Shown piece by piece: positions 40,200 through 59,462 of a DNA stretch of 64,000 bases. The notes under the pieces are model-generated. The model searched no databases. It was given only the letters and a program-made list of their open reading frames with translations, and was not told where the DNA came from. The translations under genes were made by a program, and so were the position numbers. The first letter of the stretch is position 1; each line of letters starts with the position of its first letter. Source of the stretch: a virus (lineage: Duplodnaviria > Heunggongvirae > Uroviricota > Caudoviricetes); the IMG/VR virus record IMGVR_UViG_3300024348_000010; one strand, given 5' to 3'.

Positions 40200-41384
40200 A
40201 TGAAATTAACTGAACATTTTTCTTTGGCAGAGATGATTGTTTCTCCTACTGCAAAAAGACTCGGACTTAGTAACACTCCAACTCCAGAACACATTGAGAA
40301 CATGCGTTACTGCTGCGAAAAGATTCTCGAACCAGTTCGTAATCACTTTGGCAAACCAGTTCAAATCAACTCGTCTTATCGTGCACCGTTGGTGAACAAG
40401 GCAGTCGGCGGTTCGAAGACATCACAGCACGTCAATGGCCAAGCGATCGACTTCGAAATTCCTGGTATTGACAACAAAGTTGTTGCGGATTGGATCGGCG
40501 ACAATCTCGAATTTGACCAAGTAATTCTTGAGTTCTATACAAAGGGCGATAAGAATTCTGGCTGGGTTCACGCTTCGATTAAGAAGGGTGGTGGCAATCG
40601 TAAGATGCGTATGATCGCTACGAAGTCGAAGGCAGGCGGAACCGTCTATACAACGGTCGCTGACTTTGATCCATCGACGACAAAGGCTGCTGGGGCTCCT
40701 TCAATTGCCACAGCGCCAAAGCAAGCGCCTCCTCAGTCGTCTCCGGCTGCTCCTTCAAAGGTATCAGGTCTTGGTCCATTAGCTGCTCTCCAAACAAAAT
40801 GCGGCATTACTGCCGACGGTAAATGGGGACCTGGCACATATAAGGCAGCAAGAGATTACTTCAAGCTGACAAATAATCAAGCAGCGCACTTCTTCGGTCA
40901 GTGTGCGCACGAGTCAGGCGGGTTTAAGGTGTTCTCCGAGAACCTGAACTACTCAGATAAGGGACTCAACGGCATCTTCAAGAAGTATTTTCCTACGATC
41001 GCTTCGACCGCAGGTTATGCTCGTAAGCCAGAAAAGATTGCTAACAAAGTGTATGCTAATCGGATGGGGAACGGATCAGAAGCCTCTGGAGATGGTTGGA
41101 AGTGGCGTGGTCGAGGCCCGATCCAACTGACCGGGAAAGACAACTATACAGCTTTTGCCGCTGACGTAAAACGTCCTGACGTCTTGACGAATCCTGATCT
41201 TGTGGTTGGTGAGTTGGCTTTTGAGTCTGCATTATGGTTCTTCCGTAAGAATGGATTGCTTGCAATTGCAGACAAAGGTGTAACCGATGCGGTGATCACT
41301 CAAATCTCGAAGAGAGTGAATGGCGGTACACACGGTCTTGACGATCGTTTAAAGAAAACAAAACAATACGCCAATTGGGGATAA
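40200..41384 (+). CDS. bifunctional endolysin: peptidase M15 domain + GH19-like lysozyme domain
   Basis: N-terminal Peptidase_M15_3 (SSYR...SQHVNGQAIDF), Ala/Pro linker, C-terminal FGQCAHESGGF...NYTAF GH19 motifs. The only plus-strand gene in the window. Confidence 0.7.
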   Translation: MKLTEHFSLAEMIVSPTAKRLGLSNTPTPEHIENMRYCCEKILEPVRNHFGKPVQINSSYRAPLVNKAVGGSKTSQHVNGQAIDFEIPGIDNKVVADWIGDNLEFDQVILEFYTKGDKNSGWVHASIKKGGGNRKMRMIATKSKAGGTVYTTVADFDPSTTKAAGAPSIATAPKQAPPQSSPAAPSKVSGLGPLAALQTKCGITADGKWGPGTYKAARDYFKLTNNQAAHFFGQCAHESGGFKVFSENLNYSDKGLNGIFKKYFPTIASTAGYARKPEKIANKVYANRMGNGSEASGDGWKWRGRGPIQLTGKDNYTAFAADVKRPDVLTNPDLVVGELAFESALWFFRKNGLLAIADKGVTDAVITQISKRVNGGTHGLDDRLKKTKQYANWG

Positions 41385-43908: not shown

Positions 43909-44523
43909 TCAGCGTGAACGATAAAAAGGTCTTGGATAATCTCTTTCAGCAAGATGTGATGCATCAGGATGGACGTAGTGGAGGAATAGCTGGATTAATG
44001 AATCCATTTCGAGAGGATCTCTCCAGTGCCACTTGCCTCCATAGTTTGATCCGCCATTGAAAATGATGGCATCACCTTCATCAAGGTCGACCGGTATCGG
44101 ATTGCTCTTATCATCTGAGTCGCTAAAAAATAGCGCAGACGTTCCTTCTCCCCTCTTACACATCGTGATAGTGATGGAGTACTGGCACGCTTCGCGATCT
44201 CGATGATTTTTGAGTTCAGCTCCACGAAAATATTCTCGTGAATAGGCATACGAAGGAACCATATTATCGGTTGCCCATATTTTTTCTACGATATGTTTGC
44301 AATATAAGAGTATGCTATTATCGAGAACGTTGCCATCAACAGACTGAATGTCTCCGCCTAAGTATGGACCCGTTTCTCTCCTTCTCATATCATCGAGATG
44401 AGAGATATCGATAAAGGATTTATATAGCTCTATGATCTCAGGAGACAGAACGTTTTTAATTTTAACAAAACCATTTTTCTCAAATTCAGCTCGATAAGAA
44501 GCCATCATCGTATCATCAATCAT
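43909..44523 (-). CDS. putative 2OG-Fe(II) oxygenase (PhyH-like)
   Basis: HRDRE ... HWRD candidate metal ligands. Weak. Confidence 0.4.
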   Translation of the reverse strand: MIDDTMMASYRAEFEKNGFVKIKNVLSPEIIELYKSFIDISHLDDMRRRETGPYLGGDIQSVDGNVLDNSILLYCKHIVEKIWATDNMVPSYAYSREYFRGAELKNHRDREACQYSITITMCKRGEGTSALFFSDSDDKSNPIPVDLDEGDAIIFNGGSNYGGKWHWRDPLEMDSLIQLFLHYVHPDASHLAERDYPRPFYRSR

Positions 44524-44529: not shown

Positions 44530-46593
44530 TCACTTACTTGTAGCTCTATAAACTCCGTCCCATTCCCAGGGTTCTTCAAACTTTAGATTCTGAATGCGTT
44601 TCTCCATCATATCGTAGTATGCATTCAGCTCTTCGTCCCAGCAACGTTTCAGATCTTTTATCAGATTGATAGCTGCATCCCATTTACCTTGACGATAGAA
44701 GTCCAAGAACTTTTTATGCAGCAATTCTCCAGCAGGATCTGCCACATCAAAAATGGTATAGATGCGAGCAGGTTCTGTCTTACCTTTCACGGCGATCAGG
44801 TCGAGTTCAACTACTTGGTATACATCCCCAACCAATTCGGCAGTTTGTGGTCCGACGACGAGTTTGACGCCATAAGGTTTGGATTGACCTTCCAGACGAG
44901 CAGCCAGATTAACGCCATCACCCAGACAAGTATAATCAAAACGCTGGCTACTGCCCATATTACCAACCACCACAGTGGCAGTGTTAATACCAAGACCCAT
45001 GCCAAAAGCGGGTATACCTTCTCTTTCAACTTCTTCATTAAATATCTCCAGGTCTTTTAGCATTTGAAATGCTGTTCGAACTGCATCTCGTGCATGTTGT
45101 TTGTTATCGAGCGGCGCATTCCAGAATGCCATCTGTGCATCACCAATATACTTATCTAATGTCCCATTGTTTTCAAGGATCGCTCTTGTCATGACCGTCA
45201 TATAACGATTCATGATTGAAGTCAAACCTTGGACATCTTCACCATAGTGTTCAGAGATTGTAGTAAATCCTCGAACGTCTGTGAACATGATTGAAAGCTC
45301 GCGAGATTCTCCGCCTAACTTCAAGAGATCTGGTTGTCTTTGCAATTTTGCTACCAGATCTGGACTCAGATATGTGCCGAACTGTTTCTTGATTTGTTGC
45401 TTCTGAAGGAATTCAGATATAAATTTCACTGTATAGATATGCATGTAAATAATTGCAATTGCGATGACGTTAAACGTGACGTCTAACAAGATTCCTTTGC
45501 TTGCGAATAAATACATAGGCAGATAAAGATATCCGCCTAAAATTAAACCTATCCAGACGATAGAGTATTTTAATCGAGAGATGATGATCAATGCCAGAGC
45601 CAAAACAAGAAGAGCAGCAAGATCTACAAGCTGTGTCCAATTCGGAATCGAAACCGAATCACCATTTATCAGAGTCTCAAGAATACTCGCCTGGAGCTGA
45701 TGGGGATACTGCGCACCTGAAGGAGTCGCTACAGGGTTACTTACACCAGCTGCAGTTACTCCGAGAATCACGATTTTACCACTCAGGACAGGCAAAGGAT
45801 CCTTGCCAATTTCGTATGACTCAAATCGATAGTTTGGATTAATAAACACGCGACCATATTCATCGGTCTTAATAGTTTCAAAAGAAGGAATTCGTAATGC
45901 TTCCACACCAGTCTCATTTATCTTTGCCTGATACGAAGGATCTCCGGCAGCAACTCTTAACATTTCTAGAGCAAATGCAGGGTAGTATTCACCCGCTGAG
46001 GTTGCGAGAAGCGGAACTCGTCGCACAACACCGTCAGGTTCAGGAAGAGTTGATGTCACTCCAACACCAGCAGCATGCTGCTGAAGCAATGCTAGATTCG
46101 ATAGGACGCATGGATATGACGGAAGAAAATCGGTTGACTGGCCATCCCCAACAACAGCCACACCTGTCCGACGAACATCGCGACTGGATGGTCGACCACA
46201 ATCCGCCGACACAGTCTGACTAAGAACAACTGGATACTTGCTTAGAGTATCAACAAGAACTCGATCAGTGCCCATCCGATCAGGCTCAGGCATAAGTACA
46301 GTGCTGCCAACAAGAGCAGCCCCTCGGCCATAAATGTTCCCAATAATTTCAGCGTGGACTTCACGCGGGAACGGCCACTGGCCATATTTTTCAATTGCTT
46401 TCTCCCCTAAATTAACGACTACAATCTGCTCAGATTGTTTTGCTTTATCGAGCATGATGTAGTCATAAAATTTAAGACGAGTCGCTTCAACTAGATATGG
46501 ATCTTGTAACTTAAAAGTAAATAGTACTGCAAATGTAAAGAGCGCCAACCACGGGCTCAGTAGAATCTTTTTCATCATGTCAGCGCTTTCCAT
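44530..46593 (-). CDS. CHASE2 sensor-domain membrane adenylate/guanylate cyclase (class III)
   Basis: 687 aa. N-terminal periplasmic CHASE2-like domain, three TM segments, C-terminal CYCc domain (FTDVRGFT, KYIGDAQMAFWNAP, GDGVNLAARLE). Confidence 0.75.
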   Translation of the reverse strand: MESADMMKKILLSPWLALFTFAVLFTFKLQDPYLVEATRLKFYDYIMLDKAKQSEQIVVVNLGEKAIEKYGQWPFPREVHAEIIGNIYGRGAALVGSTVLMPEPDRMGTDRVLVDTLSKYPVVLSQTVSADCGRPSSRDVRRTGVAVVGDGQSTDFLPSYPCVLSNLALLQQHAAGVGVTSTLPEPDGVVRRVPLLATSAGEYYPAFALEMLRVAAGDPSYQAKINETGVEALRIPSFETIKTDEYGRVFINPNYRFESYEIGKDPLPVLSGKIVILGVTAAGVSNPVATPSGAQYPHQLQASILETLINGDSVSIPNWTQLVDLAALLVLALALIIISRLKYSIVWIGLILGGYLYLPMYLFASKGILLDVTFNVIAIAIIYMHIYTVKFISEFLQKQQIKKQFGTYLSPDLVAKLQRQPDLLKLGGESRELSIMFTDVRGFTTISEHYGEDVQGLTSIMNRYMTVMTRAILENNGTLDKYIGDAQMAFWNAPLDNKQHARDAVRTAFQMLKDLEIFNEEVEREGIPAFGMGLGINTATVVVGNMGSSQRFDYTCLGDGVNLAARLEGQSKPYGVKLVVGPQTAELVGDVYQVVELDLIAVKGKTEPARIYTIFDVADPAGELLHKKFLDFYRQGKWDAAINLIKDLKRCWDEELNAYYDMMEKRIQNLKFEEPWEWDGVYRATSK

Positions 46594-47192
46594 TCTTCGG
46601 GTGTTATAACTTCTCTATTTACTAAAAGACTCTCATACAATTCAATCTCTTTTATCATATCTTCCCGTTTAAAGTATCTATTCTTTGGAAAAGGATCTAT
46701 ATTTCTATTAGTAGTATTGGTTTCAGCGCCTCGGGGTGATATCTTTGGAATATATTGAGATAGATCTTCAAATTTTATAATTCTAAAATCTCTATTTTTT
46801 ATAATATGCATATATGGACGACAGTGTTGATTAAAAATAAATCTTTCAATTTCCCACTCTCGTTGACGATCATCCCAGTTAATCAAGTCTTCAATAAGAG
46901 AAAAGTCGTCGCATTCTCCGGTGGTTTTATACTTTACTATTCGTTCATTAAATTGCTTTTCATGAAAATTAATAGCAGAATGCATACGTTCTACTGGATG
47001 CCTTAATACTACTACTTTCGGAGATTCTCCTTCTATCCAATGCGCAAATGTTTTTTGCATTGGTAGTTCTATTCCAAAATAATATGACATAGCCGTATGA
47101 CCGCACTTAGTCATAGATAAAACATTTAGATTGCCATTATCATGTATAAAAATAAACATAATTAATTCTTTACGTAGCTGTATCCAGTACAT
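46575..47192 (-). CDS. sulfotransferase-family protein
   Basis: 5'-PSB-like MTKCGHTAM and 3'-PB-like VVLRHPVERMHSAINF motifs. Confidence 0.5.
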   Translation of the reverse strand: MYWIQLRKELIMFIFIHDNGNLNVLSMTKCGHTAMSYYFGIELPMQKTFAHWIEGESPKVVVLRHPVERMHSAINFHEKQFNERIVKYKTTGECDDFSLIEDLINWDDRQREWEIERFIFNQHCRPYMHIIKNRDFRIIKFEDLSQYIPKISPRGAETNTTNRNIDPFPKNRYFKREDMIKEIELYESLLVNREVITPEEWKALT

Positions 47193-48622
47193 GGCCCAGT
47201 GGCGCAGGTGATTGACATTAAGACTGAGTCAGTAACGCTCGCGGCAGTTTGCGATACAGTGACTCCAATTCCAGGATTATTTATTACCAATTTAAACAGC
47301 TTCTGTGCAGAACCAGATTGAGTGATATTTGCATTCAACCCACCATACGGAGCACTGACATCGAGGAAATGATTACCAGTTCCTTGTTGAAGAGTCGTAA
47401 TCACATTCGAGTTACCTAAAATGTTGAAGAACGCAGACTTTCCACCAGTATCTTTCTGTTGGGCAGTCAGTTGATTTCCTGTTCCATTCATTATTAGCTC
47501 TGCATACTTGCCATTATATTGCTGAGTCAGAGATACGGTGTTATTGTTTCCTGTCACAGAGACTTCGGCAAGATTATTACCAAGAATTGCGACCGCAGTA
47601 CCTTGATTGATAGTAATGGAGTTGTTGCTACCATTGATCAACATCGATTGAGAACCATTTACACCTCTGATAGCGTTAAACCTCGAGAACTGCTCGATGT
47701 TGACGGTATTGTTATCACCGATATTTTGAATGTAAATCGAGTTGCTCGTAATGGCATTCGTTTGACCGAGCTTGATAGTTTGATTGGTAGTAATCGATGT
47801 AGTTGGATATACTGGTTCTGCAGGAGGTGGAGGTGGTGCAGTCGGTGCCGAAGATCCTTGGTTCGGTGCAACAGGAGCAAACGTAGCACCATTCAGTGAC
47901 GTTGTTCCTTGTAACTGATCGATGAATAAGATAGGCGAAAGAGCTGTGTCACCGAGGTTGAAAGAAGAGAATCCAAGCATATAGTTGCCATCTGCTGGAA
48001 CCGTGAACACGGCAACTTGCCAGCCAGTAGCACTATAAGAGTTAGTCGAATAGTTGCCAGTTCCAGGATTTGTAAAGCCTAACAGCGCATAGTTTTGTGT
48101 TTGACCGTTGAGAGTCGGTGTTCCCGGTCCACCCGTCAAGGTGATGAGAGAACCATCGTTATACGGAACATAGTCTGTCGACAGATACTGCCAACCAAAC
48201 GAATATGTAATTCCTGCCTGCAAGAATACTGTTCGACTGACTGAAGAAGCGTTCGTAGGATACATCGATCCGTTCGAATAGATCGTGTTACGAATAGATG
48301 TAATGTTAGAAGCGCTGAGCCCAAGAGTAGTCATCGCAGCATTAAAATTGGGCGAGTTTCCTCCTGCTTGAATCGATAACATGTACGATCCATACGGAGT
48401 AATCGTCCAGCACTTACCACCGCCTGGGCAATAGTTCTGTACTCCAGTTGTCACTTGTACACCGTTACCAGTGTCGCTCCATGAAGTACGAAGTGCAGTA
48501 GATCCGTTCGACACCGTCCAACCCGCATAATTTCCATCTTCGAAACCATAGTTCGAAGGCGTCTGCGCATTTAACTGTACGCTGAACGTTAACAGTAGTA
48601 GTGTTAAGATCCATCTCATCAT
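47162..48622 (-). CDS. secreted protein with C-terminal curlin-like (Q-x-G-x-N) repeats
   Basis: Signal peptide MMRWILTLLLLTFSVQLNA. N-terminal beta-rich domain. C-terminal repeats (SITINQGTAVAILGNN, TVSLTQQYNGKYAEL, LTAQQKDTGGKSAFFNILGNSNVITTLQQGTGN). Confidence 0.5.
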   Translation of the reverse strand: MMRWILTLLLLTFSVQLNAQTPSNYGFEDGNYAGWTVSNGSTALRTSWSDTGNGVQVTTGVQNYCPGGGKCWTITPYGSYMLSIQAGGNSPNFNAAMTTLGLSASNITSIRNTIYSNGSMYPTNASSVSRTVFLQAGITYSFGWQYLSTDYVPYNDGSLITLTGGPGTPTLNGQTQNYALLGFTNPGTGNYSTNSYSATGWQVAVFTVPADGNYMLGFSSFNLGDTALSPILFIDQLQGTTSLNGATFAPVAPNQGSSAPTAPPPPPAEPVYPTTSITTNQTIKLGQTNAITSNSIYIQNIGDNNTVNIEQFSRFNAIRGVNGSQSMLINGSNNSITINQGTAVAILGNNLAEVSVTGNNNTVSLTQQYNGKYAELIMNGTGNQLTAQQKDTGGKSAFFNILGNSNVITTLQQGTGNHFLDVSAPYGGLNANITQSGSAQKLFKLVINNPGIGVTVSQTAASVTDSVLMSITCATGPCTGYSYVKN

Positions 48623-49755
48623 CTTACACCCGATTCTTGTATCACGGTGATATTTCCTTGCGGTCTACCTGTGCCAGTCGTAGTCCATTTATCATCCATA
48701 AAATTGTATGCGTCGACGACACCATTATGAGATGAAATCATTTGGATTTCAGTATCTTTTGGTAACCATACCACGACAACTTGATTCTTATCTTCAGAGA
48801 TTCTCGAGTATACCCAACCTACCTGCACCAACTTCTTAAAAGTGGGCGATACGTTCGTATAAACGGTTTCTGTAGGCCTCTTTCCAGAATTATACTCTGC
48901 ATAAATTTCTTGAAGTTCATTCTGTGTAGGCAAACGAAGTGTAGCCACCGCTACTTCTTCTACACCATCTCCGCCAGTATTTGGATCTTGGTTATCGTCA
49001 GATGCCGCTTTTGCAGGATTGACAAACTTCTTCAAAGCTTCACGAGCTGCTGTGATCAGTGATTGTCCATCATCGGTTTCGAGGGGAGAGATCTGAATAT
49101 TGTTGTCCATACCCTTCATTGAAGGATTGATGACGACAGGAGGAGCAGGAGGCGCATAAGAATTCTCGACCATCGTTGCTTGGAATGGCTGAGTCAGAGT
49201 GACGATACCTGCAGCAGTGATCACGTCGATAGCTCCTGATGGGCATTCGAAGTTGATCTTTGTGATATCTTTGTCATTGTAACATTCAGGAACAAGAACG
49301 ACTGTCGATCTGCCAGCTTCGTCGACAGACATGACAAAGTCTGTACCTCTTACGGCGATCGTTGCAGTCGGTGTACGTATACCGACACCACGAGCATTGC
49401 CATGAGCAATCGCTCCAGAAGTATATCTTGCAGTTCCTAAAGCTAGCTTCAAACCGAGCTTGCCTTTGCTCTTATTGTTTCCATCATATACGAAATCGTC
49501 GATGACCAGCCGTGAATTCTGTGTGATGTTCACAGTGGTGGCATCGACGAATCGAATCTTAAATTTACCTTGAGAATTGGTCGACACAGTATCGTTCTTC
49601 TCGATACTCGAGCCTTTAGCAGCAGGTGCAACTTTTGCACCACGCTTTACAGAACCTCCACCCTGAAATTCTGATATCGATCCCACGCCTGCAAAAGCTG
49701 GAACCGATATCAGAAAGAGTGCATTAATGGCCAGTTTTAATATTAAACGTACCAT
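48619..49755 (-). CDS. FecR-domain protein (periplasmic partner of CHASE2 cyclases)
   Basis: Signal peptide. FecR-like block (IEKNDTVSTNSQGKFKIRFVDATTVNITQNSRLVID ... IRTPTATIAVRGTDFVMSV). Confidence 0.6.
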   Translation of the reverse strand: MVRLILKLAINALFLISVPAFAGVGSISEFQGGGSVKRGAKVAPAAKGSSIEKNDTVSTNSQGKFKIRFVDATTVNITQNSRLVIDDFVYDGNNKSKGKLGLKLALGTARYTSGAIAHGNARGVGIRTPTATIAVRGTDFVMSVDEAGRSTVVLVPECYNDKDITKINFECPSGAIDVITAAGIVTLTQPFQATMVENSYAPPAPPVVINPSMKGMDNNIQISPLETDDGQSLITAAREALKKFVNPAKAASDDNQDPNTGGDGVEEVAVATLRLPTQNELQEIYAEYNSGKRPTETVYTNVSPTFKKLVQVGWVYSRISEDKNQVVVVWLPKDTEIQMISSHNGVVDAYNFMDDKWTTTGTGRPQGNITVIQESGVR

Positions 49756-50542
49756 TTGAACCCGCCGAGTTAATATTGATTACGGTTTCAGAAGCTCCGT
49801 ACTGTTGGGTTGTAATGGTGTTCAGTGTACCTGTGAGGTTCACATACAGAGAATGGCCGAATGTTCCGCCGAGACCTGTTTGTGTCACGTCGAAGTCATT
49901 GTAATCACCAGTCACGAGAATGGTTTGAGTTGCGTTAGGCGAGAGTGCATCGATGTTGAATGCATTGTTGTCACCAGTGATATCCATCGAGTTACGAATG
50001 TTTTCGCCTGAACCATGGAATACGAGCGAGTTTGAATCGCCTGTAAATCTGGCATTCAGATCAAACTTGTTACAGATAGCATCAGATTGAAGCGTGCCGC
50101 AACGAATGTCTGCAGTGTTGAGATTACCGATCTGACGAACAGTTACTGCTGCGATTCCTGTTGCTCCTGTAGCGGAGACCACGCCCATGTAGAGTTCGTT
50201 TCCGTTACCGGTTTGAACAGCGATGACACTTTGATTATCACCTCGTAAATAGATAGGATCAGCATTGTCGCCAATGATATTAGCAGTACCAGTTTGAACA
50301 ATGTTAACATCTACATTACCACCTTCTTGGTCGATATATACTTTGTTTGTTGTAGCTACTGCAGCTGCAGTCACTTCATTTGGTGACGTAGTTACAATTG
50401 CTGGTGGAGTTGGGGCTGTTGGTAGCACTGTTTGTGCAATCGCAGATGTTCCATAAAGAAGAGCAGCTCCAACGAATAAAGATTTAATTACCTTCATTTG
50501 TTGTTTCCTTTTGCTTAAATCTCCATAGACCTTTACGTTCAC
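49724..50542 (-). CDS. curlin-repeat secreted protein (CsgA/CsgB-like amyloid subunit candidate)
   Basis: Signal peptide (probable start MKVIKSLFVGAALLYGTSAIAQ near 50494). Repeats IDQEGGNVDVNIVQTGTAN, VIAVQTGNGNELY, VTQTGLGG, TTQQYGASETVININSAGSNG. Confidence 0.55.
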   Translation of the reverse strand: MNVKVYGDLSKRKQQMKVIKSLFVGAALLYGTSAIAQTVLPTAPTPPAIVTTSPNEVTAAAVATTNKVYIDQEGGNVDVNIVQTGTANIIGDNADPIYLRGDNQSVIAVQTGNGNELYMGVVSATGATGIAAVTVRQIGNLNTADIRCGTLQSDAICNKFDLNARFTGDSNSLVFHGSGENIRNSMDITGDNNAFNIDALSPNATQTILVTGDYNDFDVTQTGLGGTFGHSLYVNLTGTLNTITTQQYGASETVININSAGSNGTFNIKTGH

Positions 50543-51308
50543 CGTCCTTGATCAATTCCACAACGGCCGTTTCTATGGCTGAACGGATCGCATAACTACC
50601 TGCTTCATTCGATGTTTGTTGTCCATCGAATTCAAAAGCTTTTGTTGCCATGTCAAAAAACTTAAATGCTGTCACTCCCTCGGACGTAGAGAGCAGATTC
50701 TTCTCAACAGTGACAGAGGTCAGGACTTCTCCTGTCTGTACTGATACGAGTCGCATACTAATAGTAACTTGATCTTCTGCATACTGTTGATAAGGGCCGA
50801 TTCCAAGGAATCGTGCACCGTTACCACCAGTTTTGGTATTTGAACTATAGTCAATAATACCACCTTCAAGAATGATACCCGCAACCATCAAAGGAGGAAG
50901 TGGCTCAGCACCTTCTCCGAGTTGTTGCTCTCTCATCTGTCTTACGAGCTGACGTTCTTTAATTAAAGAATCGATGCCTACACGCTCGACTGGTTTAAAC
51001 CATTTGCCATCTCCGACATCTGCCAATGTTTTGATAACATAAGCATCTGCACCTTGAGTCACGGCTGTCGAAAAGCTGGCTTGAGTAGCAGAAGGTTTGC
51101 GTTGTCCTGTTCTATCAGTGAACGAGTAGATGGCAATCGGAATTACCTGACCGTCAAGTTCTGGTAGAGTTCTGAACAACTTAGGATTTGCAAATCTTTC
51201 TACCTCGGCATCTTCTCTCATCAGATACGACTGATTGAGATGAGGATGCACTCCGCCTGCGCAGGCAGTTGTGACAAGAAGCAGTGGAAGTAAAATTAGC
51301 TTTTTCAT
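50484..51308 (-). CDS. csgG: curli production assembly/transport lipoprotein CsgG-like outer-membrane channel
   Basis: Lipoprotein signal (LLLVTTAC). Block IAIYSFTDRTGQRKPSATQASFSTAVTQGADAYVIKTLADVGDGKWFKPVERVGIDSLIKERQLVR is collinear with E. coli CsgG (VSVYNIQDETGQFKP..SNFSTAVPQSATAMLVTALKDSRWFIPLERQGLQNLLNERKIIR). Confidence 0.8.
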   Translation of the reverse strand: MKKLILLPLLLVTTACAGGVHPHLNQSYLMREDAEVERFANPKLFRTLPELDGQVIPIAIYSFTDRTGQRKPSATQASFSTAVTQGADAYVIKTLADVGDGKWFKPVERVGIDSLIKERQLVRQMREQQLGEGAEPLPPLMVAGIILEGGIIDYSSNTKTGGNGARFLGIGPYQQYAEDQVTISMRLVSVQTGEVLTSVTVEKNLLSTSEGVTAFKFFDMATKAFEFDGQQTSNEAGSYAIRSAIETAVVELIKDGERKGLWRFKQKETTNEGN

Positions 51309-51317: not shown

Positions 51318-51758
51318 TTAAAACGCAAACGTTGCGATAGGAACAGTCACGACTGTCGTGTTACCAAATTTGTCGACAACTGTCAACGTCACAGATGTGC
51401 CAGTTTTTACATAGCTAATTGTGTTACCATCGAGATTGAACATGCCTTGCTGAGCAGAACCTTCGGCAAAGAGATTGTTTGAAAGCTGTGTGGCTAGCTG
51501 AGCATATACCTGAGAGGTAAACAGAGCCATAAACTTTGCAAGCGGAGTGTTCGAAGCTTCAGCTTTTGCAAGAGCGGCTTTTGCTGCTTCTGCATCTTTG
51601 ATTGCTTGTTCACGAGAACGTTCTTGCGCATCGATTGCCTGCACATGTTGTGACCATCCATATCCATTGAAGGACGGACTTTTAAACTGCTGTACGAGTG
51701 GATCAGCTTTTGCTGGGCTGCTTAGTATCAGAGCTAGCAGGAGCAGACTCTTTTTCAT
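51318..51758 (-). CDS. csgF: CsgF-like curli assembly protein
   Basis: Signal peptide from the internal Met. Mature N-terminus LVQQFKSPSFNGYG matches the CsgF N-terminal motif (TFQFRNPNFGGNP). C-terminal beta-strand tail. Confidence 0.6.
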   Translation of the reverse strand: MKKSLLLLALILSSPAKADPLVQQFKSPSFNGYGWSQHVQAIDAQERSREQAIKDAEAAKAALAKAEASNTPLAKFMALFTSQVYAQLATQLSNNLFAEGSAQQGMFNLDGNTISYVKTGTSVTLTVVDKFGNTTVVTVPIATFAF

Positions 51759-51832
51759 CTTTCTTTTCCCTCTTAAAAGGTATATCTTTGTTCGAAGAAA
51801 GACTAAATTCAAGTGTGAAGATCTTGATGATT

Positions 51833-52096
51833 TCAATCTTTAGATTTATGTTCACTGTGATCTTCCTTTATCTGCAATACAACGTTCACCTTCTGATTCA
51901 ATCGAATAAGATCGTTATCCAACATACGGACACGATCAATCAACGCAATTAAAATTACATTTGTTTCGCCAATCAATGGCATTAGTTTATCTGTTACGAA
52001 CTTATAGATGAACCACACAAAATAACCCATGCCGACCGCTGCGACAATTGGAAATCCATATTGTTTTACCAGTTCTGCAATTATTTGTGGATCCAT
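51833..52096 (-). CDS. small single-TM membrane protein (paralog A)
   Basis: 87 aa. GFPIVAAVGMGYFVWFIYKF...DRVRMLDNDLIRL. Paralogous to the next ORF. Confidence 0.45.
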   Translation of the reverse strand: MDPQIIAELVKQYGFPIVAAVGMGYFVWFIYKFVTDKLMPLIGETNVILIALIDRVRMLDNDLIRLNQKVNVVLQIKEDHSEHKSKD

Positions 52097-52383
52097 TAAT
52101 CTTTCCGAGCATCGTTCTTCCCGTCTGCTCGTGCGATTCTGTCGAGATCTGGCTTCAGACCAAGAGCGGAACTTACAACTGCATCAACGCGAATAATATC
52201 ATGGTTCATTGTCTTGACTCGATTGTCAAGCCCCATAATAATACCCTGCATTCCCTTGATTGCCTTCACGACACTCTCAAGAATGTAGTTGATAACGAAG
52301 TAAACGAAAACCCCACCGAGCAATGCTGCTGCGATGGGGAATCCGACATCACCAATAAGTTTGAATATAGTATCGTAACCCAT
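52096..52383 (-). CDS. small single-TM membrane protein (paralog B)
   Basis: GFPIAAALLGGVFVYFVINY...DNRVKTMNHDIIRV. Start placed at the internal Met to avoid overlap. Confidence 0.45.
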   Translation of the reverse strand: MGYDTIFKLIGDVGFPIAAALLGGVFVYFVINYILESVVKAIKGMQGIIMGLDNRVKTMNHDIIRVDAVVSSALGLKPDLDRIARADGKNDARKD

Positions 52384-52396
52384 AGGACTATTTATA

Positions 52397-53410
52397 CTAT
52401 TTCGTGACTGATGCGCTACACTTTGTACAAATGTTGTTGTAGGCTCTGTCGATGGTCTCGACGTGCTTCTCGCTGTGCCACATTTCACTCAGTTCTTGTT
52501 CAAGAATGTTACCAAAGATATAATCAAAGTTATAATCATTGCAGCAAAGGATTGCATCTCCGTTTGAATTGACGCTTAGCCACTCGTAGTTTCGATCGCC
52601 CCAGTTTTGACAACCAACGACCGTACGATTCTTCATACGATCTTTCATGTATTCTTCTTCGGTAATATACTGACCGATAAGGCCAGTACGATCGATCAGA
52701 TCAGACTTCTCAACGTCAAATTTAGGGAACAGCTTAGTAGCAATATCTACTTGTCTCTGATGCTCGCCTGTCTGCATGTCAAGATCGATGCCAAGTTCTT
52801 CAAACTTTGGGCCTTTCTTCAAAGATCCTGTCTTAAACGAGAGTTCGTTGACACCATTGACGATCAGCTTCACTCTTCCTTGTAACTTACGTGTCACAGG
52901 ATGATCATGCAAGTTTTGAAGGTTTGTCATGACATCATCGAATCGTTTCGCAGGAAAGCCTGATCGTTTGGACCAAACTTCTGCATTCTCATAAGCAGGA
53001 ATGTTGAGTGCGATTTCCTGAATGACAGAGGGAGTATACTTATTGATGATATCGAGTTTTTCTGGAGTGAGATTGACACCGTTACTCAGAATGAAAGTCT
53101 TGAGTCCGTAGTGTTTTGCCAACTCGAGTAGCTTCTCGAAGTCTTTGTAAAGCAGCACCTCGCTGTAGTGTGTGGTGAGAAAGAGCTCGAAGTCAGGACT
53201 GACTACGCCATTTGGTGTCTCTCGTTCGACAATAAGTTTTCGAAAGATCTTCTCGACGTCCTCGATAGGCATCTGCTTCATGCCAGATTCTGGCTGAGGA
53301 ATGTACTTGACAGGACAATACCAGCATTTGGCATTACAGAACCCAAAAAGGTCGATAGCCAAACGCTGGATCTGATAGGCTTTTAACCTAGAACGAATAA
53401 ATGTAGACAA
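52397..53410 (-). CDS. radical SAM enzyme with C-terminal Cys-rich (SPASM/twitch-like) extension
   Basis: CNAKCWYC (CxxxCxxC) near the N-terminus. C-terminal CQNW...CCNDYNF...CTKCSAS. Confidence 0.65.
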   Translation of the reverse strand: MSTFIRSRLKAYQIQRLAIDLFGFCNAKCWYCPVKYIPQPESGMKQMPIEDVEKIFRKLIVERETPNGVVSPDFELFLTTHYSEVLLYKDFEKLLELAKHYGLKTFILSNGVNLTPEKLDIINKYTPSVIQEIALNIPAYENAEVWSKRSGFPAKRFDDVMTNLQNLHDHPVTRKLQGRVKLIVNGVNELSFKTGSLKKGPKFEELGIDLDMQTGEHQRQVDIATKLFPKFDVEKSDLIDRTGLIGQYITEEEYMKDRMKNRTVVGCQNWGDRNYEWLSVNSNGDAILCCNDYNFDYIFGNILEQELSEMWHSEKHVETIDRAYNNICTKCSASVTK

Positions 53411-54824: not shown

Positions 54825-55412
54825 TTATCCATTTTCTTTCAACCAGTTTAAGATGTTTTCTGGAGAAGTCTCGCCGTATGGATCTTCTCCGGCATTGTCT
54901 TCCATGCCAGGTTCGATGAACCACTTCTCGATCTTGCCGTTATTGACGATACATGCATAACGCCATGAACGTTCGCCAAAACCAAGATTGTCCTTGGCGA
55001 CACTCATCTTCATCTTATGAGTGAACTTAGCAGATCCATCAGGAATCATCTTCACCTTCTTGATCTTCTGTTGCTTAGCCCAGCAGTTCATCACAAAAGC
55101 ATCGTTGACCGATACACAGAGAATGTCGTCGATACCCAATTCCTTAAACGCTTTGAAGTTTTCTTCGAAGCCAGGAAGTTGGTATGTCGAGCATGTTGGT
55201 GTGAAGGCACCAGGAAGTGAGAAGAGAACTACACGCTTCTTTGCAAAGTAGTCGAATGAAGTCTTGTCTTCCCAGCGATACGGATTATCTCCGCCAATCG
55301 ACTCATCGCGACCGCGAGTCTTAAATACGACGTTAGGAACAATTTCAGGAAGTTCCTGAGTGTTATCATCATACTTGTTCCATGAACGTTTAACCGAAAT
55401 TGTTTCTACCAT
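54825..55412 (-). CDS. peroxiredoxin (Prx5-like, AhpC/TSA family)
   Basis: LPGAFTPTCS peroxidatic Cys motif. Second Cys in ILCVSVND. Confidence 0.75.
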   Translation of the reverse strand: MVETISVKRSWNKYDDNTQELPEIVPNVVFKTRGRDESIGGDNPYRWEDKTSFDYFAKKRVVLFSLPGAFTPTCSTYQLPGFEENFKAFKELGIDDILCVSVNDAFVMNCWAKQQKIKKVKMIPDGSAKFTHKMKMSVAKDNLGFGERSWRYACIVNNGKIEKWFIEPGMEDNAGEDPYGETSPENILNWLKENG

Positions 55413-55861
55413 AATTATTCCTTACCAATGATGGATTGCATTTGCAATCAGAAAAATGTTTGCTATGATGGCTTGTACGATTAAAAGAGTCCGGATCAAA
55501 GCGACTCTATCAGACTCGCGATCACATGAACTTGCTTTTTCACCTAAGGCTTTTGCCCAAATACGCCACATAACTAACTCCATGAATAAAGCGAAGTGAG
55601 AGGATTCAGTTGTACCTCCAAGGCCTAGTCAATTACTATCTGTAATTTCAGCCTACGACTCGTTCCTGGTTAGGGGAAGTACCACTTCCCGAGTCTACCT
55701 TATCCCCACTGACGAGGGGATTATTCAGTCACACTTCTTACACCGTCCGTCGACAGTGATATCTTATTTGCTCTGCAGGATCTTCCCCTGCGTACCAGCC
55801 TCATGGCCGGATCTTAGTCTCAATGCACGCCGTCCGTGTCCCAGATCAAGAGCAAAATTAA

Positions 55862-56380
55862 TTAGAACCTTACGCCTACACCAACCAATGCACCATGACG
55901 GCCAACTGCACCAGCAAAGTCGGTGAAGCGGTATTCTACCTTAGTGAAAACTGGTCCCGCAAGTCTGGCTTCAAGACCGCCACCGACAGTCACACCGTCG
56001 AGGTTAGGTGCATTGCGACAAACTGCTGGACGATTTCCAGCGGCAGGTGTGCAAGTTTGAGGACGCTCAAGATCGGTATAACCTACACGACCATAAGCAA
56101 GAACATTCTTATTAAGTGCATAACCAAGACGAGCAGCAGCTCCAAGATCAGCGCGTTCAAAAACATTCGCAGCGGTGGCTTCTACGCCAATAACAACCTT
56201 ACCAAATTGTAGGTCATAACCAAGAGCAGCACCATATGCAACATCGGTAGTGTCTACACCGCCAGTTACATCGTCTAGGCCTGCAGTAACTTCTGCGCGT
56301 ACACCAGCAAAATCATTTGCCATGGCTGGAGTAGCTACAAACGCAGCTGCGACAGCAAGAGAAGCGAGATACTTTTTCAT
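55862..56380 (-). CDS. outer-membrane beta-barrel protein (OmpA-like_b-brl / Omp25-Omp31 family-like)
   Basis: Signal peptide MKKYLASLAVAAAFVATPAMA. Alternating amphipathic beta strands and C-terminal ...VGVRF. GC content visibly above the window average. Confidence 0.6.
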   Translation of the reverse strand: MKKYLASLAVAAAFVATPAMANDFAGVRAEVTAGLDDVTGGVDTTDVAYGAALGYDLQFGKVVIGVEATAANVFERADLGAAARLGYALNKNVLAYGRVGYTDLERPQTCTPAAGNRPAVCRNAPNLDGVTVGGGLEARLAGPVFTKVEYRFTDFAGAVGRHGALVGVGVRF

Positions 56381-56488
56381 ACATTTACACCTTTTGTTGT
56401 TGTTGTGGTGGGCAGTTATCACATCATACCCAGGATGTACGGACTTACGGAGACCAGCTTTACCTGTAAAGATATCCCGCCGTATAAC

Positions 56489-56563
56489 TGGCTCCCTAAG
56501 AAGGATTCGAACCTCCGACCAATTGATTAACAGTCAACTGCGCTACCGCTGCGCCATTAGGGA
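56489..56563 (-). tRNA. tRNA-Asn (GTT)
   Basis: Cloverleaf parsed by hand. Anticodon loop CTGTTAA, T-loop GGTTCGAATCC, CCA encoded. Confidence 0.8.
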
Positions 56564-56570
56564 ATAAACT

Positions 56571-56762
56571 TTATTTTAACTCTTTTAATTCTTGATTGAT
56601 ATACAACTTAGCCGCATCCATGATGGTGCGAATCGCTGCTTTCTCGGCAGGAGTTGCACCTATTCCTTGAACGTAAAGATTGGCATTAATCGATTGTTCA
56701 CCTGGACCATTATCCTCATCGAGAACATGTTCGCTGATATGCAGTTCAACTTTCTTAATCAT
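56571..56762 (-). CDS. hypothetical small protein
   Basis: 63 aa. Confidence 0.35.
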   Translation of the reverse strand: MIKKVELHISEHVLDEDNGPGEQSINANLYVQGIGATPAEKAAIRTIMDAAKLYINQELKELK

Positions 56763-56777
56763 ATTATATATTCCTTA

Positions 56778-57041
56778 TTATATGCTGTTGCTATCTTTAT
56801 TCATTGACATCTGATCAAGCACTCGCTGTTCTTCTTTCAAGCGAGCAGCTTTCGCAGTAGGCGTTTCGATCTTCTTTGCGTTATGCATATCGCGTTCTTC
56901 GGGTGACATCTTGCTTGTCATATCAAGAATGATATTAAACAACCGATTAAACTCAGAAGAGTTAGGAAAGTAACGTTGAACTGATGCGAAACGATTTTCA
57001 GCCATAGTCAAATAATCAGAATTAGTCATTATAATCTCCAT
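56778..57041 (-). CDS. hypothetical protein
   Basis: 87 aa. Confidence 0.4.
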   Translation of the reverse strand: MEIIMTNSDYLTMAENRFASVQRYFPNSSEFNRLFNIILDMTSKMSPEERDMHNAKKIETPTAKAARLKEEQRVLDQMSMNKDSNSI

Positions 57042-57110
57042 TTCTTATTATTCAATCTACAACATAATGCATAATTTGTACACCAAAAAACGCACTCGGC
57101 TAAAAATAAA

Positions 57111-57187
57111 TGGTGCCCTCGGTAGGATTCGAGCCTACAACCGTTTGATTCGTAATCAAGTGCTCTATCCAGTTGAGCTACGAGGGC
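57111..57187 (-). tRNA. tRNA-Arg (ACG)
   Basis: Hand-folded. Anticodon loop TTACGAA, CCA encoded. Confidence 0.75.
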
Positions 57188-57188
57188 A

Positions 57189-57263
57189 TGGTACCCGATG
57201 ACGGGATTGAACCGCCGACCTTATCCGTGTAAAGGATCTGCTCTACCGCTGAGCTAATCGGGC
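57189..57263 (-). tRNA. tRNA-Val (TAC)
   Basis: Anticodon loop TTTACAC, G1-U72, CCA encoded. Confidence 0.75.
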
Positions 57264-57271
57264 ATTAAACT

Positions 57272-57353
57272 TGGTACTCCAAGAGGGACTCGAACCCCCA
57301 CGCTTGCGCACTAGTTCCTAAGACTAGCGTGTCTACCATTCCACCATTGGAGC
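57272..57353 (-). tRNA. tRNA-Leu (TAG), class II
   Basis: Anticodon loop CTTAGGA, long variable arm GCGCAAGCGT. Confidence 0.75.
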
Positions 57354-57354
57354 A

Positions 57355-57430
57355 TGGTGCCTTCGGACGGATTCGAACCGCCGACACGTGGTACTTCAAA
57401 CCACTGCTCTACCAACTGAGCTACAAAGGC
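57355..57430 (-). tRNA. tRNA-Phe (GAA)
   Basis: Anticodon loop TTGAAGT, D-arm GCTCAGTTGGTAGAGC. Confidence 0.8.
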
Positions 57431-57551
57431 GAGTGGCTTCCTAAGTGTGCCTTGATACATTACGTCCGGACGCTGTATCTTCCCATGTGAAGAAATGTAT
57501 TGCAAATTATTTCCGCACAACTTCTCGGGGTTCAGCAGAGGAAGCCTACCT

Positions 57552-57627
57552 TGGTGGAGGATAGCGGGATCGAACCGCTCACCTTCTGAATGCAAATCAG
57601 ACGCTCTACCGAATGAGCTAATCCCCC
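57552..57627 (-). tRNA. tRNA-Ala (TGC)
   Basis: Anticodon loop TTTGCAT, G3-U70 pair present. Confidence 0.8.
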
Positions 57628-57633
57628 AATTTC

Positions 57634-57708
57634 TGGTGACACAGGATGGATTTGAACCATCGACCAACGGCGTATGAGACCGTCGCTCTACCGCTGAGCT
57701 ACCATGTC
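57634..57708 (-). tRNA. tRNA-Met (CAT)
   Basis: Anticodon loop CTCATAC. Could be elongator, initiator or Ile-lysidine type. Confidence 0.7.
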
Positions 57709-57714
57709 ATATTC

Positions 57715-57788
57715 TGGAGCGGGCTACGGGAATCGAACCCGTGTCGTCAGCTTGGAAGGCTAGCGTAATACCATTATACCAAGCCCGC
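57715..57788 (-). tRNA. tRNA-Gly (TCC)
   Basis: Anticodon loop CTTCCAA. Similar to bacterial tRNA-Gly(UCC). Confidence 0.8.
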
Positions 57789-57795
57789 TTTATTC

Positions 57796-57871
57796 TGGTG
57801 CCCCCACGACGACTCGAACGCCGGGCCTACGCATTACAAGTGCGTCGCTCTACCAACTGAGCTATAAGGGC
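57796..57871 (-). tRNA. tRNA-Thr (TGT)
   Basis: Anticodon loop CTTGTAA. Confidence 0.8.
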
Positions 57872-57877
57872 AATAAG

Positions 57878-57955
57878 TGGTCGGGAATGTAGGATTCGAA
57901 CCTACGACCTCCTGCTCCCAAAGCAGGCGCGCTGACCAGACTGTGCTAATCCCCG
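57878..57955 (-). tRNA. tRNA-Pro (TGG)
   Basis: Anticodon loop TTTGGGA. C1-G72 as typical for Pro. Confidence 0.8.
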
Positions 57956-58003
57956 TTATAGTATTCTATATATACATTCTAAATTAAAGTACACAAAAAA
58001 ATT

Positions 58004-58079
58004 TGGATGCCCCTCCAGGGCTCGAACCTGGACTTTTCGGAATCAAAATCCGACGTGTTGCCAATTACACCAAGGGGCA
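58004..58079 (-). tRNA. tRNA-Gln (TTG)
   Basis: Anticodon loop TTTTGAT. U1-A72 as typical for Gln. Confidence 0.8.
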
Positions 58080-58291
58080 GTGGTGGGTGACTGTGGTTAC
58101 GCTCCACTCCCTTTACGGATCGGTTTTACAGACCGACTGCCGAAACTATCGACTTTAATCACCCTTATTCTATACACCCTATCGGTTAACCCCATTGATC
58201 TTTGCGGTAAGGAATCCGATATTCGCCAGCGTTCCCCGTCTGTTAGTCTGGCATAGGTCTCTCCGGTAGGTTCTAGAATACCGGATAATTC

Positions 58292-58367
58292 TGGTAGACC
58301 ATGTAGGATTCGAACCTACGACCTAAGGATTAAGAGTCCCGCGCTCTACCAACTGAGCTAATGGTCC
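58292..58367 (-). tRNA. tRNA-Lys (CTT)
   Basis: Anticodon loop CTCTTAA. Confidence 0.7.
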
Positions 58368-58524
58368 ATAAAATTAAAACTGATACATTACCCAAAAGTA
58401 TGCTATTGCACCACTAGACCAAGTCACTTTACTACCTCTGTACTTTTTGTTCGGTACGAGAGGGGACTCTGGTAATGGAAGTAAAATCCAATCTTCGTAT
58501 TTCATAATATACTCTTTCAAAAAC

Positions 58525-58600
58525 TGGTGGACGATCTGGGGCTCGAACCCAGGACACACAGGTTAAAAGCCCGTTGCTCTACCTACTGAGCTAATCGTCC
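58525..58600 (-). tRNA. tRNA-Lys (TTT)
   Basis: Anticodon loop CTTTTAA. Confidence 0.8.
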
Positions 58601-58608
58601 GTTAAAAT

Positions 58609-58875
58609 TTAACCGATGTAGATCCGATACTCATCGGAATCTACAGGTGCACCGAGCGTCCGACGCTCGACGTAGTAACGCTGGATGAACCGATCGCCAT
58701 CACGAGTGTACACACCGTGGGCAGTCCGTGCTTCATCTTCCGACGCATACACGCCAAGGAGCACCGAACCTTCGTAATCCCATTCACCTAATAATGCAAA
58801 TATTTCCATATCACATCTCCATAATTTCAAAACGAGCATCAAATGCATTATCCAATGCTGCCACAAATTCATCAT
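58609..58875 (-). CDS. hypothetical small protein (GC-rich)
   Basis: 88-aa ORF inside the tRNA array. Start uncertain. Confidence 0.3.
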   Translation of the reverse strand: MMNLWQHWIMHLMLVLKLWRCDMEIFALLGEWDYEGSVLLGVYASEDEARTAHGVYTRDGDRFIQRYYVERRTLGAPVDSDEYRIYIG

Positions 58876-59037
58876 AATCAGCGCCTGCTTCTTCGCAGGC
58901 TTTACGCATCAACCGAACCATGTCGGCAATCATTTCTTCGCGGTTGAGAATCATAACAATTTCCTTTAGCTTATTATTCATATTACCAAAGATATGATAA
59001 AATGTACACTAAAAAATGCACGGTATGAAAAATAATT

Positions 59038-59115
59038 TGGTAGGGGTAGTGGGACTCGAACCCACACTGTGCGAATTTTAAGTCCGCTGACTCTAACCAA
59101 TTGGCCTATACCCCC
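59038..59115 (-). tRNA. tRNA with anticodon TAA (Leu-UUA reader), atypical class-I-like architecture
   Basis: Anticodon stem GCGGA/TTCGC, loop CTTAAAA, A73, but only a 5-nt variable loop and a long D-loop. Confidence 0.55.
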
Positions 59116-59116
59116 A

Positions 59117-59192
59117 TGGGGTGATCGACGGGTATCGAGCCCGCAACTCCGGTATCACAAACCGGCATGTATCCATTAACACCTCGACCACC
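59117..59192 (-). tRNA. tRNA-His (GTG)
   Basis: Anticodon loop TTGTGAT. Extra G-1 pairing with C73 (His hallmark). T-loop CTCGATA is unusual. Confidence 0.8.
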
Positions 59193-59462
59193 ATAAACTG
59201 TTTGATTAGACCCCGCCGGGATTGCCCAGCACCTCACGACATCCGCTACGCAGACACCGTCTAATCACGCCCTAGCGTTACCCTCAACTTGGTGTGGAAC
59301 AGTCCCCGCTGCTCTGTATTACTGTTTGCTCGATGGGGTTACATGAGGTCGGCCTCATCTCTTTTCTATGCAAACAAACCACGTAAACTGGCGGAGTTGC
59401 CAATCGCAGAAAGACACCCTCTCTTGTTATCGATCGACCATTAACGTGTCCACGACTCCATA

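Follow-up and report, generated by a model that had tools for sequence, protein, structure and literature searches.

A CHASE2-sensor adenylate cyclase and its FecR-domain partner within a phage-borne curli-type secretion module

A gene for a CHASE2-sensor class III adenylate cyclase adjoins a set of curli-type secretion genes in IMG/VR virus record IMGVR_UViG_3300024348_000010, a stretch of 64,000 nucleotides from a member of the Caudoviricetes that was analysed here as a whole (hereafter the window). Among the core genes of a fixed, phage-borne module the cyclase comes last, and its pairing with an exported FecR-domain protein is not due to chance; that the gene is what it appears to be, and that it belongs to the module, is close to certain. 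The best overall explanation, to which we assign a probability of roughly 0.55, is that the cyclase serves as an envelope-coupled sensor that would turn the state of the fibre or of its secretion into cyclic AMP (cAMP) late in infection. The arrangement of viral type VIII secretion system (T8SS) genes with FecR and cyclase genes was already published in 2022 (PMC9599517), and the window is a further member. New here are the CHASE2 sensor, the retention-module-like N-terminus of the FecR-like protein, the type I secretion and adhesin context of the bacterial relatives, the finding that a published kinase label is unsupported, and a frequent late-promoter box.

Four minus-strand open reading frames (ORFs) of 687, 205, 486 and 378 residues occupy positions 44530-49755. 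A sequence-only reading of this DNA had identified the 687-residue product as a cyclase with a CHASE2 sensor and had placed a FecR-domain gene two genes upstream of it. Its coordinates and domain calls hold: Pfam searches returned CHASE2 PF05226 at residues 23-336 of the cyclase (E 8.7e-38, 130.8 bits against a cut-off of 26.3), Guanylate_cyc PF00211 at residues 431-607 (E 2.5e-17, 63.5 bits against a gathering cut-off of 21.9) and FecR PF04773 in the 378-residue protein (E 2.4e-12, 47.6 bits against a cut-off of 24), with the 486- and 205-residue ORFs lying between the two genes. Hydrophobic segments were found in the cyclase at residues 11-29, 322-341, 344-364 and 368-389. The three transmembrane helices counted earlier are thus present, while a further, N-terminal helix had gone unmentioned, and the layout becomes a first helix (11-29), CHASE2 (about 30-320), helices two to four (322-389), the catalytic domain (431-607) and a conserved C-terminal tail (613-687). 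One N-terminal and three later helices put CHASE2 in the periplasm and the catalytic domain in the cytoplasm. The predicted topology is the usual one for CHASE2 proteins, with the sensor outside and catalysis inside, and activity is expected to be set by the periplasmic domain.

The active site was compared with those of solved enzymes. Adenylate cyclases in the PDB were matched at E 1e-32 to 5e-27, the closest three (E 1e-32 to 2e-28) being a phytochrome-cyclase fusion (6fht), Pseudomonas aeruginosa CyaB (3r5g) and Spirulina CyaC (1wc0). The catalytic motifs quoted in the sequence-only reading were located at residues 437-444 (FTDVRGFT), 481-485 (KYIGD) and 558-568 (GDGVNLAARLE). The window cyclase has the metal-binding residues D439 and D485, the phosphate-binding R551 and the transition-state residues N562 and R566, and alignments with the PDB sequences and with eight diverse phage homologues pair the adenine-specifying K481 with T555. 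In the alignments with CyaB and CyaC (E 5e-31 and 2e-28, respectively) the Asp pair, Lys, Thr, Asn and Arg are identical; the two enzymes differ from the phage protein in carrying other sensor domains and in having no curli or FecR context, and their PDB entries comprise the catalytic domain only. Among 109 distinct full-length phage homologues, D439, K481, D485 and R566 are invariant and R551 is present in 107. Position 555 is more variable (T in 83, D in 19, S in 7), as is position 562 (N in 90, S in 19), with Asp555 and Ser562 coinciding in the same 19 proteins, for example those of phage Melnitz and of the Melnitz-type locus L001. The catalytic domain is also the best-conserved part of the phage cyclases, with a mean identity of 74% versus 56% for CHASE2.

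Because the catalytic residues are intact and invariant and the catalytic domain is the best conserved, the window protein is predicted to be a catalytically competent enzyme; the possibility of a pseudo-cyclase, which had been raised beforehand, does not survive the retention of the metal-binding Asp pair, Lys481 and Arg566 in every homologue. The sequence-only reading had held that nucleotide specificity could not be read with confidence. We depart from it on this point, since the Lys481/Thr555 pair is that of the solved adenylate cyclases CyaC and CyaB and differs from the Glu/Cys of guanylate cyclases, and ATP is probably the substrate. The conserved tail, which is missing from HTVC008M-type cyclases, matched no family. 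Stand-alone ORFs of about 110 residues, homologous to residues 570-670 or so of the cyclase, lie just upstream of CsgF in four related loci (Table 1), with none in the window; given these separate homologues, the tail looks like an independent domain.

The proposed link between the cyclase and the adjoining curli genes proved to be real in both directions. All module genes of the window lie on one strand, in the order P130, P87 (two small membrane proteins), CsgF, CsgG, curlin-repeat protein, FecR-like protein, second curlin, a 205-residue insert and cyclase; the genes abut or overlap, and every envelope component carries an export signal. Pattern scans of IMG/VR, each taken up to 600 matching stretches, confirmed at least 587 with the cyclase and at least 583 with CsgG. 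Synteny was scored in the best 80 matches for each anchor, sets that lean towards relatives of the window (54-94% identity to its cyclase in the cyclase-anchored set). All cyclase-anchored loci with enough upstream flank hold P130, P87, CsgF, CsgG, curlin, FecR and cyclase in the same order. In the reverse direction, curlin, FecR and cyclase follow CsgG in 49/49 loci with at least 6 kb downstream, and CsgF precedes it in 76/76. The order is shared by HTVC008M (gp014-019), Melnitz (genes 99-104) and about 130 IMG/VR loci, and it spans cyclases as far apart as 37-44% identity. In a set of 50,697 phage records, only six (four of Melnitz and two of HTVC008M) combined CsgG and P87 with a full-length cyclase, and P87 had no match outside these six; two Acinetobacter phage records matched the catalytic domain alone and one short Salmonella phage record matched CsgG alone. 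Public data clustered at 90% identity contained over 7,400 clusters of the cyclase and at least 8,000 of FecR.

The FecR-like protein is not a FecR of the E. coli type. Its signal-peptide-like N-terminus is its sole hydrophobic segment, neither a cytoplasmic anti-sigma domain nor a transmembrane anchor was found in it, and no sigma factor or TonB-dependent receptor was found among the module ORFs scanned. On these grounds it is no iron-citrate regulator. NCBIfam models for LipL45/Lsa33 also matched the protein, and its C-terminal half had no family match.

Three lines of evidence, weak but independent, suggest that residues 26-95 or thereabouts of the FecR-like protein resemble the retention module of the adhesins LapA and MpIBP. 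The NCBIfam model retention_LapA (NF033682) matched at E 9.6e-4 and 19 bits, below its cut-off of 50; it also matched FecR-domain partners of bacterial cyclases, again below threshold (E 2e-7 to 1e-4). In a profile search of all PDB sequences, the MpIBP retention domain (5ix9) came top at E 0.017. The same entry was the top Foldseek match, with a target-normalised template-modelling score of 0.75 and 30% identity, obtained from a model with a mean predicted local distance difference test (pLDDT) score of only 46. AlphaFold2 models reached pLDDT 39.9 from an alignment of 23 sequences and 46.0 from one of 43, the homologues being too alike, and only the first 50 or so residues were moderately confident, so that Foldseek was used for its top match alone. 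We regard the resemblance as a lead and not as membership of the family. The structure 5ix9 has served as the template for modelling the LapA retention module, a plug on the periplasmic side by which the adhesin is kept in its outer-membrane pore (bioRxiv 10.1101/198937). In the Lap system, cyclic-nucleotide signalling and a surface adhesin meet at the periplasmic module (bioRxiv 10.1101/198937), and the giant FecR-domain neighbours of bacterial cyclases that share the sub-threshold match lie beside type I secretion genes. The phage protein, on the other hand, is small, has a Sec signal, lacks RTX repeats and adjoins a type VIII rather than a type I secretion system, and Lap signalling uses cyclic di-GMP (LapD/LapG) and runs from inside to outside.

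Bacterial relatives of the cyclase place the same lineage beside another secretion system. The 80 closest bacterial cyclases are 30-39% identical to it over nearly the full length and come mostly from Alphaproteobacteria such as Bradyrhizobium, with a few from metagenome-assembled genomes of other phyla. In a neighbour-joining tree, 29 phage representatives (<70% identity) formed one clade against the 45 closest bacterial sequences in 50/50 bootstraps. CsgG, CsgF and curlin were not found within 10 kb of any of the 80. Of the 51 closest bacterial loci flanked by 5 kb or more on each side, 24 have an ORF with a FecR domain within 10 kb, which lies directly upstream and on the same strand in eight; the proteins so encoded are giants of the VCBS, cadherin, LamG or RTX kind. 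A gene for an HlyD-family membrane fusion protein lies near the cyclase in 25 bacterial loci and directly upstream in at least 10. Bacterial members of the lineage therefore belong to type I secretion and adhesin loci; a literature search returned no paper joining CHASE2 with type I secretion. In a marine alphaproteobacterial single-cell genome (AG-337-E20; locus L109), a TolC-like gene, an ABC-C39 transporter, an HlyD-family protein with an N-terminal cyclic-nucleotide (cNMP)-binding domain (L109:8276-9991) and the CHASE2 cyclase follow one another, with a second HlyD/ABC pair and a FecR-RTX protein close by. In this case a cyclic-nucleotide receptor is built into the secretion machine itself.

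The occurrence of FecR-domain proteins with CHASE2 cyclases in bacteria, which the sequence-only reading had described as a conserved signalling pair, is borne out by these counts and by neighbours published in Sinorhizobium and Burkholderia (PMC5498481, PMC5192318). In Sinorhizobium meliloti, an alphaproteobacterium, CyaD1, CyaD2 and CyaK are CHASE2 adenylate cyclases that respond to an extracytoplasmic signal, and the exported FecR-domain protein SMc02177 is part of the same cAMP circuit, among the targets of Clr (PMC5498481). That system differs in having Clr as a dedicated cAMP receptor and in having no curli genes, and SMc02177 is dispensable for signal perception (PMC5498481). The Burkholderia 'BiofilmReg' operon likewise sets a secreted FecR-domain protein beside a CHASE2 sensor with a link to biofilms and surfaces; there, however, the output is a histidine kinase with a response regulator, the FecR protein bears LysM, and the carrier is a bacterium (PMC5192318).

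A T4-type late-promoter-like box, TATAAATA, stands before the first module gene and directly follows the stop codon of the upstream radical-SAM gene. Of 66 distinct related loci, 31 have such a box where the first small gene begins, against about 0.03 expected per 350 nucleotides. The window holds seven late-promoter-like boxes, all on the coding strand. With the box at the module start, and at far above the expected frequency, late expression of the whole module is likely. No riboswitch or other Rfam element adjoins the module, and scans of the window for sigma-70 promoters and terminators gave results near the shuffled background. Two of the seven are TATAAATA boxes 8-11 nucleotides upstream of the genes for tRNA-Asp (60229-60305) and tRNA-Arg (61944-62019).

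Taken as an envelope-coupled sensor, the system might work as follows. The module is probably transcribed from the T4-type late promoter, and the Sec-exported FecR-like protein would act as a periplasmic co-sensor beside CHASE2. The cue would be the condition of the curli-type channel or fibre that the phage builds, or of whatever the fibre touches, and would be relayed to CHASE2, upon which the cyclase would raise cAMP in the infected cell. This sensor logic appears to derive from Alphaproteobacteria, whose closest cyclases directly follow genes for type I secretion and for giant adhesins with a FecR domain; the phage would have swapped that system for a type VIII (curli) one. The cAMP would most likely be read by a host protein, because no cNMP-binding protein of the phage was found, and this is the weakest step of the proposal. 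The specific role given to the FecR-like protein, that of coupling fibre or secretion state to the cyclase, is tentative, and we hold it at somewhat less than even odds. Unlikely, if worth stating, is the broader view that the CHASE2 cyclase, jointly with the FecR-like protein, is a portable sensor for structures of the cell surface, watching adhesins in Alphaproteobacteria and the curli fibre in phages, in which case cAMP at the bacterial locus described above would act directly on the cNMP-binding membrane fusion protein.

Several observations weigh against the envelope-sensor explanation. A profile for CRP and cNMP-binding proteins, built from E. coli CRP (an approximate sequence) and 12 bacterial matches, returned no cAMP receptor from the window, from some 160 related phage loci or from the complete genome of HTVC008M. 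The late-promoter box is present in only about half of the related loci, and some podovirus curli clusters are without the cyclase (PMC9599517). The retention-module resemblance is marginal, with all sequence scores below threshold and the fold match derived from a model of pLDDT 46. The subclade with Ser562 and Asp555, 19 of the 109 cyclases, could have altered or lower activity.

Other explanations account for part of the same evidence. The strict co-location of the cyclase with T8SS genes would also be seen if the cyclase regulated them, cAMP switching on the T8SS as cAMP-CRP acts on csgD in enterobacteria, a possibility suggested and discussed in PMC9599517. However, the cyclase is the last gene of the same packed transcription unit and would be made together with the genes that it is supposed to induce; neither CsgD, CRP nor a cNMP-binding regulator was found in the module, the window or HTVC008M; the T4-type late box suggests that the phage's own programme drives transcription; and simple induction would need no periplasmic sensor domain. 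We consider this explanation very unlikely. Alternatively, cAMP might reprogramme host catabolism through CRP-type regulators, with the cyclase acting on its own and its adjacency to the curli genes an accident of a hypervariable region. The region does contain many auxiliary genes (2-oxoglutarate (2OG)-oxygenase, cytidylyltransferase, radical SAM, FabF-like), and a host target is required in any event, no phage receptor having been found. Against such an accident, the synteny is too strict in both directions (49/49 CsgG-anchored and all informative cyclase-anchored loci, across cyclases of 37-44% identity), the FecR-like partner is present in every case, and bacterial kin of the cyclase sit in secretion and adhesin loci, all of which make stand-alone host takeover quite unlikely.

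It could also be argued that the product disturbs Pycsar/CBASS-type immunity or marks the cell as infected, in line with a match of the catalytic domain to PADLOC PycC models (best E 8.2e-25). That score, however, reflects generic class III ancestry. The closest enzymes of solved structure are genuine adenylate cyclases, the Lys that specifies adenine never varies, and cAMP is not known to act as a signal in Pycsar/CBASS-type defence. A Pycsar-type effector with a cNMP-binding domain was not found adjoining the cyclase, elsewhere in the window or in related loci, and there were no other PADLOC matches. Counter-defence or a superinfection signal would, moreover, leave the periplasmic sensor and the curli linkage unexplained, and we rate it as highly improbable. 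The same low standing is given to a mainly structural role, in which the protein would be a scaffold of an envelope complex with a vestigial cyclase domain. The Asn562Ser change in one subclade and the missing tail of HTVC008M-type proteins would fit such a role, but the invariance of the metal Asp pair, Lys481 and Arg566 (109/109) and the greater conservation of the catalytic domain (74%) than of CHASE2 (56%) speak for retained catalysis.

That pelagimyophages carry curli genes was first described in 2020 (PMC7029224), and a 2022 paper described such genes in Melnitz (PMC9004378); the cyclase and FecR are mentioned in neither text. The full cluster was described in podo- and myo-pelagiphages as 'HK' (histidine kinase), CsgF, CsgG, CsgA/B, FecR, a second CsgA/B and adenylate cyclase (PMC9599517, mSystems 2022). 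In that study FecR, HK and cyclase were noted as foreign to bacterial curli operons, an alphaproteobacterial origin was inferred, and transcripts of the viral T8SS cluster were present in ocean metatranscriptomes (PMC9599517). Our literature searches turned up neither functional work on the cluster after that study nor, apart from PMC9599517, any paper on adenylate cyclases encoded by phages, with or without CHASE2. The window module shares with the pelagiphage cluster (HTVC008M, Melnitz and HTVC023P-type podoviruses) the succession of one or two small genes, CsgF, CsgG, curlin, FecR, second curlin and cyclase, a cyclase 39-41% identical over its full length, bacterial cyclase kin that are mostly alphaproteobacterial, and the lack of a recognised CsgC, CsgD or CsgE. 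It differs in the additional 205-residue gene within the module and in its carrier, which belongs to another T4-like lineage with 25 tRNA genes and 43% GC. The pelagiphage papers, for their part, do not discuss CHASE2, interpret FecR as a regulator of iron and label the small genes as histidine kinases. Compared with the E. coli curli system (CsgA-G), CsgG, CsgF and subunits with curlin repeats are held in common; in contrast, CsgC, CsgD and CsgE were not recognised in the phage module, a FecR-like gene stands between the subunit genes, the unit includes a sensor cyclase, and the carrier is a lytic phage.

The remaining module genes (Table 1) were assigned one by one. P130 is kept upstream of CsgF, or close by on the opposite strand, in related loci. 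P87 had no significant Pfam match, and neither P87 nor its paralog P130 resembled any HisKA or HATPase family, even with matches up to E 10 admitted; by position these are the 'HK' genes of the published module, but they are not recognisable kinases, and the histidine kinase label is unsupported by their sequences. A faint match to a PHROG 'holin' covers the first 20 residues of P87. The 272-residue curlin-repeat protein matched Curlin_rpt below the Pfam threshold (E 6.4e-4) and the NCBIfam models CsgB (0.0026) and CsgA (0.012), and hhalign aligned it with E. coli CsgA at a probability of 83% (E 9.4e-6); its Q-x-G-x-x-N columns are invariant. The 486-residue protein consists of an N-terminal domain (residues 20-262 or so) with no family match, a Pro-rich linker at 263 and curlin-like repeats (about 292-460). 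With a BLASTP match to the 272-residue protein at E 1e-4 and a weak NCBIfam CsgB match, it is read as a second CsgA/B-like subunit, and this type of second curlin is optional, being present in 32 of the 49 CsgG-anchored loci. The 205-residue ORF had no match in Pfam, NCBIfam, PHROGs, PADLOC or the PDB at E up to 10; a sulfotransferase assignment, made by eye from the motifs TKCGHTA and RHPVERMHS, was dropped as unsupported in these searches. Relatives with 33-62% identity occupy the same slot in three of 80 loci (L003, L010 and L037) and lie elsewhere in three others, and from this distribution the ORF behaves like a mobile small gene.

Table 1. Positions of the module genes and of other features discussed in the text (numbering of the window, unless a related locus is named)
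Feature	Position	Strand	Remarks
CHASE2-sensor class III adenylate cyclase	44530-46593	-	687 residues; Pfam and PDB matches
205-residue ORF, lineage-specific insert between second curlin gene and cyclase	46575-47192	-	
486-residue secreted protein	47162-48622	-	signal-peptide-like N-terminus; curlin-like C-terminus
Sec-exported FecR-domain protein, 378 residues	48619-49755	-	Pfam FecR PF04773
Curlin-repeat (CsgA/B-like) secreted protein, 272 residues	49724-50542	-	likely true start ATG 50497
CsgG outer-membrane lipoprotein channel (T8SS)	50484-51308	-	Pfam CsgG E 2.3e-51; lipobox-like ...TTAC N-terminus
CsgF	51318-51836	-	Pfam CsgF E 2.3e-17; likely start ATG 51758; signal peptide from MKKSLLLL
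P87, small single-pass membrane protein, 87 residues	51833-52096	-	phrog_18771; P130 paralog
P130, small single-pass membrane protein, ~95 residues, first module gene	52096-52383	-	phrog_18771; likely start ATG 52383
T4-type late-promoter-like box TATAAATA	52389-52396	-	5 nucleotides before P130 ATG
Tail-like ORFs of related loci	L186:5452-5787, L187:6831-7292, L196:7153-7470, L201:2144-2494		homology to cyclase tail
2OG-Fe(II)/PhyH-like oxygenase	43909-44523	-	phrog_2954
Radical SAM/SPASM gene	52397-53410	-	
FabF-like beta-ketoacyl synthase	29180-30289	-	
SPFH/Band 7 membrane protein	31566-32426	-	
Peptidase_M15/glycoside hydrolase 19-like protein	40200-41384	+	394 residues
Peroxiredoxin-like gene	54825-55412		
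manA RNA motif	55589-55758	-	RF01745; 64 bits, gathering score 55
Outer-membrane beta-barrel protein	55862-56422	-	OMP_b-brl; weak Phage_OMP match
tRNA gene cluster	56489-62019	-	25 genes

Genes flanking the module are less firmly tied to it. The 2OG-Fe(II)/PhyH-like oxygenase gene begins 6 nucleotides past the stop codon of the cyclase and is probably outside the module, since its position is kept only in the closest relatives (L003-L006). A radical SAM/SPASM gene lies directly upstream of the module, as it does in some related loci (L004-L006, 92-95% identity; L021, 56%).

The window is part of a large T4-like phage of a lineage distinct from, and not closely related to, HTVC008M. Nearly all of its genes run on the minus strand. 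The gp43-type DNA polymerase shares 49.6% identity with polymerases of cyanomyophages and only 45-47% with the HTVC008M enzyme, a DnaB-type helicase and UvsX are also encoded, and 25 tRNA genes are clustered in one region, where a gene called tRNA-Ile(tat) is 92 nucleotides long and one tRNA-Ser was scored as tRNA-Sec by Rfam. Megablast of the region against the 50,697 phage records gave no match, relatives surfacing only in protein-level searches. The GC content of the window (43.4% versus 33.5% in HTVC008M), together with the polymerase divergence, argues for a host other than that of HTVC008M (Pelagibacter/SAR11). An identical cyclase protein was also found on contigs of JGI samples 3300007597, 3300008052, 3300027531 and 3300027304.

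Elsewhere in the window, the FabF-like beta-ketoacyl synthase gene shows that fabF and curli genes coexist in this phage; in the 2020 paper, fabF was assigned to a freshwater pelagimyophage group without a curli operon (PMC7029224). Two further genes, for an outer-membrane beta-barrel protein and an SPFH/Band 7 membrane protein, are envelope-directed. A manA RNA motif lies upstream of the peroxiredoxin-like gene. Among the few plus-strand genes is one for a 394-residue protein with Peptidase_M15 and glycoside hydrolase 19-like domains, probably a two-domain endolysin.

The module and the phages that carry it are very common, and with the window its known range comes to include a T4-like lineage that has 43% GC and 25 tRNA genes. 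Two published annotations are corrected, that of FecR as an iron regulator and that of the small genes as kinases. The sensor cyclase is the most tractable entry to the question of why lytic phages of streamlined aquatic bacteria build curli-type secretion systems, because E. coli can be used to measure how active it is, which substrate it takes and whether it depends on the FecR-like partner, and the link of its lineage to bacterial type I secretion and adhesins gives a concrete, testable model. Should the portable-sensor view be true, the pair would signal, as late cAMP, that a fibre is being assembled, that cells are in contact or that a second phage is attacking, and would thereby adjust when the cell lyses or what becomes of it, forming a phage-encoded pathway of outside-in signalling.

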